A program made the position numbers and the translations under genes. A DNA stretch of 64,000 nucleotides, taken from contig CALLFZ010000036.1 in the NCBI GenBank assembly GCA_938010045.1, positions 38,801 to 102,800 of the forward strand. The letters run 5' to 3'. This document shows, piece after piece, positions 16,712 to 20,066 of the stretch. The notes under the pieces are model-generated. The model was not told the origin of the DNA and did no database searches. It saw nothing but the letters and a program-made list of their open reading frames with translations. Position 1 is the stretch's first letter. Each line of letters begins with the position of its first letter. The DNA comes from an uncultured bacterium. Its GTDB lineage: Bacteria > Verrucomicrobiota > Kiritimatiellia > PWTM01.

Positions 16712-17257
16712 TTATTGCCGTAGGTACGTGCCGACCAATTCCGCGGTGGCCAGCACATGTCCCTTCATCGCGGCCTCGAGCTGGGCCCGGTTTGCGCGCG
16801 GCGGCAGATCCAGCATCGTGTCCAACGCATAGAGGCGGAAGTGGTAATGGTGCACTCCGCTGCCGCGCGGAGGCATCGGACCGTTGTAGCCGAGCCGGGG
16901 CCAACTGTTCATGCCCTGCCGCGCGCCGCCGAGAGTGTCCACCGTGTCGTGTTTCGCGACGCCTTCGGGCAACTCGGTCACGTTCGATGGAATGTTCCAG
17001 ATCAGCCAGTGGTCCCAGACCTTGCCAGCTACGCGCACCGCATCTGGATCGTCGCAGATCAGCGCGTACGACTTCACGCCGGCCGGCGCACCAGTCCACG
17101 TGAGCGGCGGCGAGATGTCCGCGCCTTCACCGGTGTACTTCGCGGGTATCGCCTGATGTGGGCCGAAGGCCGTGCTGCTCAGTTTCATGACACCCTCCCC
17201 GGCACTCACCATGCCCAACACCACCGCCGCCCCAGCGGCGGCCCACCACCAACCCAT
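16712..17257 (-). CDS. YbhB/YbcL-family (PEBP/Raf-kinase-inhibitor-like) protein with signal peptide
   Basis: Start MGWWWAAAGAAVVLGMVSAGEG, then PPLTWTG, YALICDDPDA, WDHWLIWNIP and GVHHYHFRLYALD. The upstream 1.2 kb of the same open frame is Arg-rich noise. Confidence 0.75.
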   Translation of the reverse strand: MGWWWAAAGAAVVLGMVSAGEGVMKLSSTAFGPHQAIPAKYTGEGADISPPLTWTGAPAGVKSYALICDDPDAVRVAGKVWDHWLIWNIPSNVTELPEGVAKHDTVDTLGGARQGMNSWPRLGYNGPMPPRGSGVHHYHFRLYALDTMLDLPPRANRAQLEAAMKGHVLATAELVGTYLRQ

Positions 17258-17539
17258 CCGATGATGCTTCACCACACCAGCGAATATACCACGTCCGCGA
17301 CTCCGAGACGACCCCGCACGTGTCGCAGCAGCCAGCTCCATGATGGACAACAACGACCACCGTGCAAGGATCTTGGTGGGCCGAACGGCAGAGACCGACG
17401 CGGGGCCAGGAGAGATCCAAGGCCGTGGCCGTCTTCCGCGCGGCATTCTTCGCCATGGGCATTCGTGCTGCCCGCGCGCGGAGTCATCGGCTGTGCAATG
17501 GGACCTTGAACAATCGGCGATCGAAGGTATGTTGATCCC

Positions 17540-17896
17540 ATGGATCCACGCGGACTCAAGGTTCGGACGCCGCGGCGGGTGGTTGCCATCGCGATACTGG
17601 TGGTCGCCGCTGGCGCCGTGGACATAACCCGAGCGGTGGTTGTACCGGATGGCTGCGAATGCGCCACGACGACATGTTCGCCGCGCGAGGGGGGCCCCGC
17701 GTGCGGATGCCCGTGTGTTCCCGTCTGCCCCTGCGAGGCCGCCGGCCCAACACCTGGCCCGCTTATGTGCGTAGCTCCCGAAAGCGACGGAACAATGGTG
17801 AATTGGCCTGTGATCGCGATTTCCGAGCCTCAATCTTTGAAGCCTGCGAGCCGCACGGAGCGGCCGCCCGTGCCGCCTCCCATCCCGACCGTCTGA
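17540..17896 (+). CDS. candidate small membrane-anchored Cys-rich protein (hypothetical)
   Basis: N-terminus RRVVAIAILVVAAGAV (TM or signal segment), then the Cys cluster CECATTTCSPREGGPACGCPCVPVCPCE. GC3 is only moderate, so this may still be a chance ORF. Confidence 0.3.
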   Translation: MDPRGLKVRTPRRVVAIAILVVAAGAVDITRAVVVPDGCECATTTCSPREGGPACGCPCVPVCPCEAAGPTPGPLMCVAPESDGTMVNWPVIAISEPQSLKPASRTERPPVPPPIPTV

Positions 17897-17977
17897 CCCC
17901 TGTTGATGGAAGTGTCCTGTGGGACTTCCATCGGTTCGGTCGAGGACATTCACAACCTGCGGTAAGGAGTGTTCAAG

Positions 17978-18217
17978 ATGAAGACATTCTCGCGAAGATT
18001 CGCGATCACTACGGCCGCGCTGCTGATGGCGTTTCCGCTCGTGGCGGGCGCGGCCGAGGGGCGCCGTGCGGGATGCAAGGGCGCGGCCCAGGGCTCGAAG
18101 TGCGCGTGTTGTCAGTGCGATCCGTGCAACTGCAATCCGTGCACGTGCTGCGGCGGCAACCGCGGCGGCGAGACGGGTTCGGGTGGCTCGGCCTGCGGCG
18201 CCGTGAAGGCGAAGTAG
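17978..18217 (+). CDS. small secreted Cys-rich peptide (metallothionein-like or RiPP-like; hypothetical)
   Basis: AAGGAG sits 8 nt upstream of ATG (MKTFSRRFAITTAALLMAFPLVAGA, a signal peptide). The mature ~50 aa has 11 Cys (GCKGAAQGSKCACCQCDPCNCNPCTCCGG...SAC). GC3 is high, and a strong terminator follows directly. Confidence 0.5.
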   Translation: MKTFSRRFAITTAALLMAFPLVAGAAEGRRAGCKGAAQGSKCACCQCDPCNCNPCTCCGGNRGGETGSGGSACGAVKAK

Positions 18218-18239
18218 TCCGCATTCCACTGGACGGTCG

Positions 18240-18274
18240 GCCGCCCGGGGCCTGGGGCCCCGGGCGGCTTTTTT
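18240..18274 (+). terminator. rho-independent terminator
   Basis: gccgcccggggcc-tgg-ggccccgggcggc forms a 13-bp GC stem with a 3-nt loop, followed by TTTTTT. Confidence 0.7.
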
Positions 18275-18386
18275 CCGGTCGGAAACGCTTTGGATCAGCC
18301 ATCTATCGGAACGCAGCCGGGTCGAGACGGGGTCGGTTTTCCTCCCGACGGCGGCAAGAGATGTGGAACTTGTGCGAAACCTCCGG

Positions 18387-20066
18387 TTAGCGGCGGGCGG
18401 ACCGCCGACGTGCGCGCTCGAGCAGGTCCAACGCGTGCGCGAGCGCCGCCCGTGAGTCGCTGCCGCCGAGCATGCGCGCAAGTTCCTCCACTCGGCCGCG
18501 TTCGTCCAGCGCCACCACCTCGGTGAACGTACGGCCTTCGCGCACCACCTTGCGCACCGCGCGATGCGCCACGCCCCAGGCCGCTACCTGCGGTAGGTGC
18601 GTAATGCAAAGCACCTGATGCCGCTCCGCCACGCCCGCCAGTTCGCGCCCCACTGCGTGGCCCATCTCGCCGCCGAGGTTCGCATCAATCTCGTCGAACA
18701 CGAGCACGGGGATGCGGTCGTGCTCCGCGAGCACCGCCTTCAGTGCGAGCATGAGCCGCGAAATCTCGCCGCTCGAGGCGATCTGCCGCAGCGGCCGCAT
18801 CGGTTCCCCGACGTTCGGCGCAAAGCCGAACTCGACACGATCCATGCCATCCGCGCGCGGCTCCACCGGGAACAGTTCGGCCGCGAACGCGCTGCCGGGG
18901 AAGCCGAGAAACTCCAGTTCTCCGGTGACAGCCTCGGCCAGCTCCTCCGCGGCGGCGCGGCGACGCGCGCGCAGGACCTCGCCGCGCCGCTCGCGCTCGG
19001 TGCGCAGGCGCGCGAGCTCCTCGTCGAGCTCGGCGAGCCGTTGACCGCGCGATCGCAGCTCCTCCAGCCGCGTCCGCGCGCGTTCGAGCTCCGCGAGACA
19101 CGCCGCCACGGAACCGCCATACTTGCGCTGCATGCGCTGGTAGACCGCCAGCCGTCGGTCGAGCCATTCGAGCCGCGCCGGCTCGGCTTCGATGCCGCCC
19201 GCCTCGCGCAAAACCGCGATTCCAAGTTCCTGGACCGCCTTCGCCAGCCGCACCGCCTCATCGCGCCACTCCACCGCGGCGGGCAGCAGCCGGGCGAGTT
19301 CGTCGAGCGGCCGCTGAGCCTGAACCAGCGAGTTGTACGCGCAAGCGTCGCCCTCCGTCAGCGCGGCCGCAGCCTGGCTCGCAAGTTCGAGAATGCGCTG
19401 CGCATGCCCGAGCATTTCATGTTCCCGACGGATCTCCTCCTCCTCTCCCTCCCGCAGACTCGCCTCCTCAAGATCGCGGACTGTGAACTCCAGTAGATCT
19501 ATTTCGCGCGCAAATCGCTCGTCATCGCCCACCAACTCCGAACGTTGCGCCTCCAGCTCGAGGATTTGGGCGTGCACCTCCGCGTACGCGGCCCGCTCCG
19601 CCCCTGCGTGCGCTAACGCGTCCAACATCGCGAGCTGTTCGGCGGGGTGAAATAGTGACTGGTGGTCATGCGGACCGTGCAAGTCCACCAGCACATCGCC
19701 GATTCGAGCGAGCGTCTGCACTGTCACCGGGCTGTCGTTCACATGCGCCTGGCCGGTCCCGTTCGCGCGGACCGTCCGTCGGATGAGAAGTTGCCCGTCC
19801 TCGCACGGCGGAAGATCCAGCGTCGCAAGCACGGCATCCACGTCCCGTGAGTCCGCAAGCTCGAACAAGCCCTCCACCCAGCAGTGGTCCTCGCCCGCAC
19901 GAATGAGGGAGCGGTCGGCCCGGTCGCCGAGCAACAGTGCAAGCGCACCCACCAAGATGGATTTGCCCGCCCCGGTCTCCCCGGTGATGACATTCAGCCC
20001 CGGCTCGAACTCGGCGCGGACATCATCGGCGATGGCGAGGTGTCGAACGCGAAGCGATCTCAGCAT
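18387..20066 (-). CDS. recN: DNA repair protein RecN
   Basis: MLRSLRVRHLAIADDV...GLNVITGETGAGKSILVGAL (Walker A), a coiled-coil middle region, and a C-terminal SMC-type signature/Walker B region. Confidence 0.88.
   Translation of the reverse strand: MLRSLRVRHLAIADDVRAEFEPGLNVITGETGAGKSILVGALALLLGDRADRSLIRAGEDHCWVEGLFELADSRDVDAVLATLDLPPCEDGQLLIRRTVRANGTGQAHVNDSPVTVQTLARIGDVLVDLHGPHDHQSLFHPAEQLAMLDALAHAGAERAAYAEVHAQILELEAQRSELVGDDERFAREIDLLEFTVRDLEEASLREGEEEEIRREHEMLGHAQRILELASQAAAALTEGDACAYNSLVQAQRPLDELARLLPAAVEWRDEAVRLAKAVQELGIAVLREAGGIEAEPARLEWLDRRLAVYQRMQRKYGGSVAACLAELERARTRLEELRSRGQRLAELDEELARLRTERERRGEVLRARRRAAAEELAEAVTGELEFLGFPGSAFAAELFPVEPRADGMDRVEFGFAPNVGEPMRPLRQIASSGEISRLMLALKAVLAEHDRIPVLVFDEIDANLGGEMGHAVGRELAGVAERHQVLCITHLPQVAAWGVAHRAVRKVVREGRTFTEVVALDERGRVEELARMLGGSDSRAALAHALDLLERARRRSARR

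Follow-up and report, generated by a model that had tools for sequence, protein, structure and literature searches.

To our knowledge, bacterial metallothioneins are few and cytoplasmic. The known copper and nickel handlers of the periplasm use Met and His ligands or are enzymatically modified peptides, and Csp1, an exported Cys-rich four-helix bundle of ~120 aa that leaves the cell interior by the Tat route, stores Cu(I) outside the cytoplasm. Bufferins are copper-binding, Sec-exported peptides, synthesised on ribosomes and modified after translation (RiPPs), that are made by MNIO enzymes and for which periplasmic copper chelation has been proposed (PMC12452194 and PMC11626156). Here we describe two adjacent open reading frames (ORFs), ORF-A (ORF1; 17540-17896, + strand, 118 aa) and ORF-B (ORF2; 17978-18217, + strand, 79 aa), in a stretch of 64,000 nucleotides from contig CALLFZ010000036.1 (the window; all positions are numbered from its first letter). 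The host is an uncultured Kiritimatiellia-like bacterium of the Planctomycetes-Verrucomicrobia-Chlamydiae (PVC) group.

We propose that ORF-B encodes a Sec-exported, metallothionein-like thiolate metal binder and that ORF-A is its co-exported partner, a proposal that we consider about as likely to be right as not.

Sequence features of the two peptides

The ORF-B product has a predicted signal peptide at aa 1-25 (MKTFSRRFAITTAALLMAFPLVAGA|AEG) followed by a mature region of 54 aa. The complete product reads MKTFSRRFAITTAALLMAFPLVAGA|AEGRRAGCKGAAQGSKCACCQCDPCNCNPCTCCGGNRGGETGSGGSACGAVKAK, with 11 Cys past the putative cleavage site AGA|A. Its core, C42-C58, is CACCQCDPCNCNPCTCC (nt 18101-18151), which is followed by a Gly-rich linker, a single further Cys and a Lys-rich tail. 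The mature window peptide contains no F, W, Y or H, has one hydrophobic residue and carries a net charge of +4. Across the members of the family, mature ORF-B was observed to be 33-55 aa long with 20-36% Cys, no F/W/Y/H, 0-1 hydrophobic residues and a net positive charge, while the number of Cys was found to vary between odd and even counts (11, 12, 15, 14, 15 and 12). Low mass, Cys-rich motifs and few or no aromatic residues are the operational marks of a metallothionein, and the ORF-B sequences would qualify under each of them. The GC content at third codon positions in ORF-B (0.84) is usual for coding sequence in this genome.

ORF-A ends 81 nt 5' of ORF-B. Its N-terminus is a probable Sec signal peptide (aa 1-26, ...VVAAGA|VD) and is followed by a Cys cluster at aa 39-65 (CEC-x13-CGCPCVPVCPC) and, near the C-terminus, by the motif RTERPPVPPPI (aa 105-115; nt 17852-17884). 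The traits common to ORF-A members are the signal-peptide-like N-terminus, a C-x-C or CCC(C) cluster with more Cys after it, and an invariant C-terminal R-[TS]-[DE]-x-P-x3-PPI. The C-terminal motif appears to be a signature of the family: in six frames of the 1.7 Mb of DNA examined, the expression R[TS][DE].P.{2,4}PPI matched ORF-A C-termini only.

All members of both families have a positively charged n-region, an h-region with a mean Kyte-Doolittle value of 2.1-3.6 (10-aa window) and small residues at -3/-1. Every ORF-B member begins with MK[TA]-, followed by the hydrophobic h-region and an AXA-type site, and the putative ORF-A cleavage sites are AGA|VD in the window and ATA|H, VKA|E and VTA|K in homologues. 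Neither a lipobox ([LVI][ASTVI][GAS]C) nor a later transmembrane segment was seen when the ORF-A and ORF-B members were read for them. Given the n-region, the h-region and the -3/-1 pattern, with no lipobox and no later transmembrane segment, ORF-A is probably secreted with a cleavable signal peptide and not anchored in the membrane.

Reading the window in six frames gave 613 ORF segments with a length of 60 aa or more. Ranked by Cys density, ORF-B came first (10 Cys in 30 aa) and its neighbour ORF-A second (8 in 30), and the background Cys frequency across the six frames was 2.6%. By this ranking, the Cys richness of the pair is not a matter of chance.

An earlier sequence-only reading of this stretch had listed the AAGGAG-N8-ATG start, the signal peptide and 11 Cys of ORF2, its terminator and the CEC cluster of ORF1; all of these were found in place, with the terminator hairpin counting 14 pairs (13 G-C). 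It had also described ORF2 as exported and metallothionein-like in composition, which is consistent with the Cys content of the mature region and with the rule-based signal-peptide features. Its view of the ORF1 N-terminus as a hydrophobic anchor had to be revised, as the -3/-1 rule makes this look like a cleavable signal peptide. Furthermore, ORF1 is indeed a second Cys-cluster ORF, 81 nt upstream of ORF2, but it is more than a mere neighbour, as the conservation described below indicates.

Homologues and conservation of the cassette

A k-mer-seeded search of 5.8 billion proteins returned only P0001 (99% identical) and P0002 (77% identical) as relatives of ORF-B. The source of P0001, contig L002, matches the window at 99.92% over 14 kb, the differences being ten single-nucleotide polymorphisms (SNPs) and an indel of one base. 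Two of these SNPs are non-synonymous and fall within the cassette, one at 17765 (M76V in ORF-A) and one at 18065 (R30C in ORF-B), where the change creates a twelfth Cys; P0002 likewise has Cys at this position. P0002 comes from a contig of 995 bp (L001) in which both ORFs occur in the same order and the ORF-A homologue (P0003) is 51% identical.

Among 1.84 billion representative proteins, a HMMER profile made from the window clade matched only itself. For E-values at the scale of such a database, the peptides of this family are too short and their composition is too biased. A scan of GTDB genomes with the window-clade alignment and only the patterns MKTFSRRF and Q[GC][ST]KCACC gave no relative, these two patterns being so narrow that the scan was blind to other clades. 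A metagenome scan with the DNA skeleton of CxCCxCxPCxCxPC returned mostly simple repeats of TGC/CCN, and L130 was the sole true relative among the matches listed. In this locus, ORF-A is 111 aa long, starts with a signal peptide, contains a Cys cluster and has the tail ...QRTDKPEHPPPIGPAHHV; the ORF-B, located 67 nt past it, reads MKTIKNNLLALLVMSALVGFGAQALA|GDCC...CACCKCAPCACKPCACCKCEKCACGAK... and is followed by a terminator. When the search was repeated with the L130 peptide in the alignment, it brought in P0007 (71 aa) as well as a clade whose peptides are 53 aa long, such as MKTILMSLLVAATLTGTALA|AQVQEKCTSCCKCETCACAPCACCKCETCKCAK. The members of the 53-aa cluster in NCBI are hypothetical proteins of metagenome-assembled genomes (MAGs) of Kiritimatiellales or Kiritimatiellaceae, and the taxonomic placement of the carriers relies on such MAG labels. 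One variant of ORF-B, P0010, has no stop codon and reads through to 96 aa.

Our alignments show that nine Cys are invariant in all ORF-B members (P0004-P0009 included), forming the skeleton CC-x-C-x2-C-x-C-x2-C-x-CC. A lack of homologues with conserved Cys spacing had been named beforehand as a refuting outcome; it did not occur, since the skeleton was found in three clades. In addition, an ORF-A homologue lies 47-81 nt 5' of ORF-B in every contig that is long enough (L001, L130/L209/L210, L199-L204, L205-L207 and L211-L213); L208 is cut at its 5' end, and all that it shows in place of ORF-A is an ORF fragment of 42 aa, apparently the gene's tail. Judged by this arrangement, A-then-B is a fixed two-gene cassette that travels together in three diverged clades.

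As the peptides are short and compositionally biased, homology was tested against 1000 shuffles in which signal peptide and mature region each kept their own composition. Hidden Markov models (HMMs) of the L130/L199 clade were run on both genes of the window and 53-aa clades, and in each of the eight tests at least 999 of the 1000 shuffles scored lower than the real sequence. For example, on the window ORF-B the L130/L199 model gave 18.6 bits and was beaten by none of the 1000 shuffles, and for ORF-A the score was above 999 of them. HMMs built from the window clade only reached the L130/L199 clade (0-16 of 1000 shuffles equalled it), while the 53-aa clade was not reached convincingly.

The substitution patterns were observed to be those of coding sequence. 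Between the window and L001, the rates of non-synonymous (dN) and synonymous (dS) substitution were 0.118 and 0.507 for ORF-B (ratio 0.23; 11/7/23 differences at the three codon positions) and 0.48 and 1.03 for ORF-A (ratio 0.47). In the pairs L206/L207, L212/L207 and L130/L199, dN/dS was 0.16-0.33 for the two genes (0.16-0.20 for ORF-B and 0.20-0.33 for ORF-A). By these measures, ORF-A and ORF-B are real genes under purifying selection. Gene callers missed ORF-A in L002, L209 and L211, and the cassette is therefore under-annotated in public data.

Two peptides from low-GC organisms (L147:1815-1988 and L197:57-164) also fit CxCCxCxPCxCxPC. They are very Cys-rich, cytoplasmic and without a signal, and the L197 peptide has the complete ORF-B skeleton as well (MAKITKKAKTAKKKVCPCCKCNPCKCKPCKCCNC); in L147 the next gene encodes an XRE-type helix-turn-helix protein with a Cys-rich tail. 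Both were set aside as cytoplasmic look-alikes and are not counted as family members.

Family, structure and literature searches

Scans of both ORFs and their relatives against Pfam, NCBIfam, PADLOC and PHROG gave nothing meaningful, the best match being an unnamed PHROG at E=0.003. ORF-B had no Pfam family at E<=1 and no NCBIfam match, P0006 and P0007 had no Pfam family at E<=5 except for two spurious weak matches, and ORF-A had no Pfam, NCBIfam or PADLOC match and a single PHROG match at E=0.73. A PDB profile search with ORF-B returned noise only, and the Rfam scan had no match within the cassette region. AlphaFold2 predicted no fold for ORF-B (pLDDT 50.5, 9 sequences), with short helices only, all of them at pLDDT <70, and none for ORF-A (pLDDT 43.1, 2 sequences). 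A full-text literature search found neither the motifs of the peptides nor any paper on a bacterial periplasmic, secreted, exported or extracytoplasmic metallothionein. By these searches the cassette is an undescribed family, as the sequence-only reading had supposed might be the case; the lack of Pfam, NCBIfam, PDB and PADLOC matches and a literature search that did not find the motifs bear this out.

Expression signals

Promoter-like hexamers are found at 17506-17533 (+ strand), with TTGAAC (17506-17511) and TATGTT (17528-17533) separated by a 16-nt spacer and ending 6 nt before the ORF-A ATG. The same layout was observed in L001 (TTGAAT-16-TATGGT, 6 nt to the called GTG start) and in L130 (TTGATT-16-TATTTT, 6 nt to the ATG), and the window element scores under the threshold of the promoter scan. 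Since the element ends 6 nt ahead of the start codon, the ORF-A message would be leaderless or nearly so. A Shine-Dalgarno sequence ahead of ORF-A was not found in any of the six compared loci. ORF-B is preceded by the Shine-Dalgarno sequence AAGGAG (17964-17969, + strand) with an 8-nt spacer to its ATG at 17978, and a purine-rich ribosome-binding site (AAAGGA, AAAGGAG or TAAGGAG) was present in five of the six loci, L001 having a weaker one (GTTGAGG).

Between the two genes, a hairpin at 17905-17932 (+ strand; GATGGAAGT / ACTTCCATC) starts 9 nt past the ORF-A stop and has 13 pairs in the fold with no U-run. The A-B spacer of the window folds at -28.6 kcal/mol (z = -1.8), and strong hairpins of differing sequence, also without a U-run, occur at the same spot in L001, L130 (z = -3.1) and L199, making four high-GC loci with the window; in the 53-aa clade the hairpin is weak or missing. 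This hairpin may be an element for the end or the stability of the RNA, or a partial terminator that sets the ratio of A to B expression. In the minimum-free-energy fold of the spacer, the ORF-B Shine-Dalgarno is paired within a second hairpin (17944-17974; GGACAUUC...GGAGUGUUC). Downstream of ORF-B, the terminator scan placed an intrinsic terminator at 18239-18274 (+ strand), consisting of a hairpin (18239-18269; 14 pairs, 13 of them G-C, with a loop of 3) followed by T6. A GC-rich hairpin with a T-run was observed directly 3' of ORF-B in all six compared loci, where the stem sequences differ.

Genomic setting and metal context in relatives

In the window, the cassette is flanked by a PEBP/YbhB-family gene (16712-17188, - strand; Pfam PBP, E=3e-46) and by recN (18387-20066, - strand). 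A 589-aa ORF on the minus strand (16712-18481) spans the entire cassette, and it is a real gene only in its last ~158 codons, which are those of the PEBP/YbhB gene at 16712-17188. The remainder shows no signal in its codon-position GC (0.68/0.66/0.64) and, by that measure, is an open-frame artefact typical of DNA of 65-70% GC. The nearest relatives of the window RecN (61-70% identity) belong to MAGs of Verrucomicrobiota, Kiritimatiellae and Lentisphaerae. In the RecN-syntenic loci of 76 genomes, neither an ORF-A or ORF-B homologue nor a PEBP gene beside RecN was found, and the cassette has therefore moved, synteny being lost at that distance. Homologues of AmmeMemoRadiSam, Memo, AMMECR1, TauE, PPK2, MntP, NiSOD and RidA were not found in the 64-kb window, and no operator or palindrome was found 5' of the cassette in the window, L001 or L130.

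The relatives show a richer context. In the 53-aa clade, an exported protein of 77-87 aa is encoded 3-12 nt 5' of ORF-A. Its pattern is CPxM-G-x2-V...G-x2-IY-x-CC-x2-C...DP-x2-Y, in which the resemblance to a YHS/TRASH metal-binding domain is by eye only; the 83-aa member also has weak L24e matches in NCBIfam (E=0.0055, below the cut-off) and PDB (E=0.95). In L212 and L213, the promoter of the three-gene unit formed by the 83-aa gene, ORF-A and ORF-B contains a candidate CsoR-type operator, ATACCCGATCAGGGTAT, that overlaps the -10 box (L212:9291-9307 and L213:9291-9307). The site combines ATACCC-N5-GGGTAT with TAC-N9-GTA and thereby equals the conserved half-sites and the TAC-N9-GTA hallmark of type-2 CsoR operators (PMC3902906). 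It is the sole occurrence of ATACCC-N5-GGGTAT in the 1.7 Mb of DNA, and degenerate versions occur in L205, L207 and L211. A tblastn search with an approximate B. subtilis CsoR sequence as the query had no match in the window or in the main loci.

A gene for nickel superoxide dismutase (NiSOD; Pfam Sod_Ni) lies directly 3' of ORF-B in L206 (1018-1185, ~130 nt away) and L208 (355-810, 66 nt away). Its N-terminus is Sec-signal-like and ends in ...SVAGA|HCQIPCG. Cleavage by signal peptidase at AGA|H would expose His1 of the nickel hook, and the enzyme is therefore apparently exported; the signal peptide of a planctomycete NiSOD has been taken in the same sense (PMC12537917). In the L130/L209 lineage, MntP adjoins the cassette in L209 and a ZnuABC-type transporter is encoded 2.6-6 kb off. 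A half-size gene of the TauE/SafE family (120 aa) followed by PPK2 is found 3' of the cassette in L130/L209 (L209:10408-11590) and 5' of it in L199 (6363-7544), so this pair has stayed beside the cassette despite rearrangement.

An AmmeMemoRadiSam radical SAM gene (TIGR04337) lies 1.2-1.5 kb 3' of the cassette on the opposite strand in L209 (11718-12809, - strand) and L212 (11371-12294, - strand). The two orthologues are 56% identical and come from two diverged clades, and Memo and AMMECR1 are nearby in L212; this proximity may reflect either a gene order inherited from a common ancestor or a link in function. The sole radical SAM/SPASM gene within 10 kb (L212:4208-5410) encodes an anaerobic sulfatase maturase; it scores 508 bits with TIGR03942, for which the cut-off is 349. 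According to the Pfam tables of five contexts (window/L002, L199-L202, L209/L210, L211 and L212/L213), no MNIO (DUF692), DUF2063 or peptide maturase gene is present within ~10 kb, and the earlier remark that modification enzymes are not adjacent holds for all five.

Proposed function and alternative explanations

In the proposed mechanism, signal peptidase I would cut at AGA|AEG and ORF-B would enter the periplasm as a peptide of ~54 aa (33-49 aa in other clades). Its 11-15 thiols, arranged as CC-x-C-x2-C-x-C-x2-C-x-CC, would then enclose soft metal ions as thiolate clusters in the manner of a metallothionein, with Cu(I) as the first candidate and Ni(II), Zn(II) or Cd(II) next, and the peptide would buffer, sequester or hand over the metal in an anaerobe's reducing periplasm. 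ORF-A would be produced at a lower level than ORF-B and could assist as a co-exported partner in loading, docking or hand-off through its own CxC...C cluster and the R-T/S-D/E-x-P-x3-PPI motif. In the sister clade, a CsoR-family sensor of Cu(I), or of Ni/Co or persulfide, would switch the operon. The variable and odd Cys counts together with the R30C polymorphism favour thiolate clusters over a fixed disulfide framework.

The wider form of the proposal is one that we hold more tentatively and with somewhat less than even confidence. It states that the cassette would be the first Sec-exported bacterial metallothionein family, a Kiritimatiellia-specific two-component system with ORF-A (RTDxPxxxPPI) as the obligate partner, handling periplasmic Cu(I) or Ni and, in some lineages, placed under CsoR-type control and coupled to an exported NiSOD. 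If this is true, extracytoplasmic metal handling would gain a different solution, a thiolate peptide that is plain, ribosomal, exported by Sec and tied to a fixed partner, probably specific to anaerobes with a reducing periplasm, and a first function would be given to a gene pair that annotation pipelines label as hypothetical or miss. Furthermore, ORF-B-type peptides are short enough for synthesis and could serve as metal-binding tags or in bioremediation.

Several observations weigh against the metal-binding proposal. The known periplasmic copper proteins are mostly Met/His-based, since periplasmic thiols oxidise. ORF-B has no match to the curated metallothionein families in Pfam, the signal peptides were called by the -3/-1 rule of thumb, and, since the alignments are shallow (9 and 2 sequences), the low pLDDT is weak evidence of disorder. 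The metal context is confined to two sister clades. It is missing in the lineage of the window itself, in which the neighbours (PEBP, RecN and a glycosyltransferase) have no metal connection and neither a CsoR-type operator, a small CPxM...CCxxC gene nor a CsoR homologue was found. Even in the sister clades, the 83-aa upstream protein had no Pfam match at E<=10 except for one spurious one and PDB profiles gave no confirmation of a YHS/TRASH domain, and the MntP, ZnuABC and NiSOD context may in part be coincidental synteny. In addition, the operator does not identify the effector because persulfide sensors such as CstR likewise act through operators of the CsoR family (PMC8643695).

Of the other explanations, we regard a disulfide role as the least improbable, although still an unlikely one. 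Here the peptides would be oxidised after export and would serve as cross-linked envelope parts, like OmcA of Chlamydia, or as compact disulfide-rich effectors or toxins. Small, exported, Cys-rich peptides in a PVC bacterium are what this explanation expects, and two co-encoded Cys-rich proteins likewise occur at chlamydial omcA/omcB. An exported NiSOD beside the cassette in L206 and L208 indicates that the clade meets oxygen species, and intermolecular cross-linking would tolerate a varying number of Cys. A fixed knot, however, is difficult to reconcile with Cys counts that vary from 11 to 15 and are sometimes odd, or with an R/C polymorphism. Knottins and defensins also differ from a peptide that has 36% Cys, many CC/CxC pairs and neither hydrophobic nor aromatic residues. 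No compact fold was given by AlphaFold2, and neither a lipobox nor a Pfam match at E<=1 to Chlam_OMP3 or others was found.

A little less probable again is a role as a buffer of thiols, reactive sulfur or redox state, in which the peptides would act in the periplasm on persulfide, polysulfide or oxidants, carrying or quenching them, and would not bind metals. Sulfidic habitats are home to the anaerobic Kiritimatiellales that are the hosts. In L130 and L199 the cassette has a TauE/SafE-family gene at its flank, and NiSOD adjoins it in L206 and L208. The operator would suit this role too, persulfide sensors (CstR) sharing the CsoR-family type (PMC8643695). Against it, none of the TauE/SafE and NiSOD neighbours is present in the window, the TauE-PPK2 link is limited to two related lineages, no sulfur-transferase genes are conserved nearby, and the operon's CPxM...CCxxC gene suggests metal, not sulfur.

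It is distinctly unlikely that ORF-B, and perhaps ORF-A, is a RiPP precursor modified before export by an unlinked MNIO or radical SAM enzyme. Cys-containing precursors with Sec signals do exist among bufferins and oxazolins, but the precursors of bufferins keep strictly to the gene order bufABC, together with MNIO and DUF2063 (PMC12452194), neither of which lies within ~10 kb in the five contexts. The AmmeMemoRadiSam radical SAM gene that two clades have at 1.2-1.5 kb from the cassette (TIGR04337, of unknown function) could be brought forward as the enzyme, yet such genes are absent from the 64-kb window and form a conserved system of their own, and the radical SAM/SPASM gene near the L212 cassette is a sulfatase maturase. 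DUF2282 and the NCBIfam models, which include those of bufferin precursors if the library holds them, were not matched.

The idea that the pair is non-functional, either as chance ORFs in GC-rich DNA or as a non-coding RNA element, can draw on the many spurious ORFs of high-GC DNA (such as the 589-aa one) and on the uncalled ORF-A in L002, L209 and L211, but it is very nearly eliminated by dN/dS <0.5 with a third-position excess in three pairs, amino-acid motifs kept across clades whose DNA no longer aligns, a Shine-Dalgarno and terminator conserved around ORF-B, and the lack of an Rfam match.

Therefore, among the candidate roles named by the sequence-only reading, periplasmic metal buffering is the best supported, by the composition and by the CsoR-type operator, CPxM...CCxxC gene and NiSOD of the sister clades. 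The RiPP and Cys-knot roles are disfavoured because the cassette has no conserved enzyme beside it and because its Cys number is variable, with odd counts among the values.

Comparison with known systems

The closest resemblance is to the metallothioneins (SmtA/BmtA, MymT and the eukaryotic ones). Like these, ORF-B is small, has 20-36% Cys in CC/CxC/CxxC arrangements, contains no aromatics, is without a predicted metal-free fold and is flexible in its Cys number. The classical proteins are cytoplasmic, whereas ORF-B has a predicted Sec signal peptide, is always paired with a second, putatively exported Cys-rich protein (ORF-A) and matches no Pfam family.

Bufferins (BufA1/DUF2282 and BufA2) share with ORF-B the small size, the Cys and the Sec signal peptide, which in ORF-B is called by rule. 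They differ in their precursors, since no DUF2282 (Buf1) or Buf_6/12_Cys (Buf2) match to the cassette was found in Pfam or NCBIfam, and in their genes, since neither bufB (MNIO) nor bufC (DUF2063) occurs beside the cassette in any lineage examined. The Cys density of ORF-B is also far higher, and its proposed binding would be by plain thiolates and not by thiooxazoles. Peptides modified by radical SAM enzymes (SCIFF/ranthipeptide and CcpM type) are unlike the cassette in the same respect, because no radical SAM/SPASM peptide maturase is adjacent to it and no radical SAM gene is present in the window. Csp1 resembles ORF-B in being Cys-rich and, as predicted for ORF-B, exported. Mature ORF-B, by contrast, is only 33-54 aa, has no predicted helices at >=70 pLDDT and no Pfam match (DUF326), and lacks a twin-arginine motif of the S/T-R-R-x-F-L-K type, the RRF of the window clade not being kept in other clades.

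The chlamydial OmcA/CrpA proteins (Chlam_OMP3) likewise come from a PVC lineage, are exported, measure ~9 kDa and contain many Cys, and their gene is next to that of a second Cys-rich protein. OmcA uses disulfide cross-links, and in the cassette no PF03503 match, no lipobox and no similarity of Cys spacing were detected. Finally, the L212/L213 promoter shares the conserved core of type-2 CsoR operators with the CsoR-regulated operons of the copZA type. The operator is perfect in L212/L213 only and was not seen 5' of the window cassette, and no csoR gene is nearby. The cargo also differs, consisting of three small, putatively exported proteins instead of a CopZ chaperone and a P-type ATPase.

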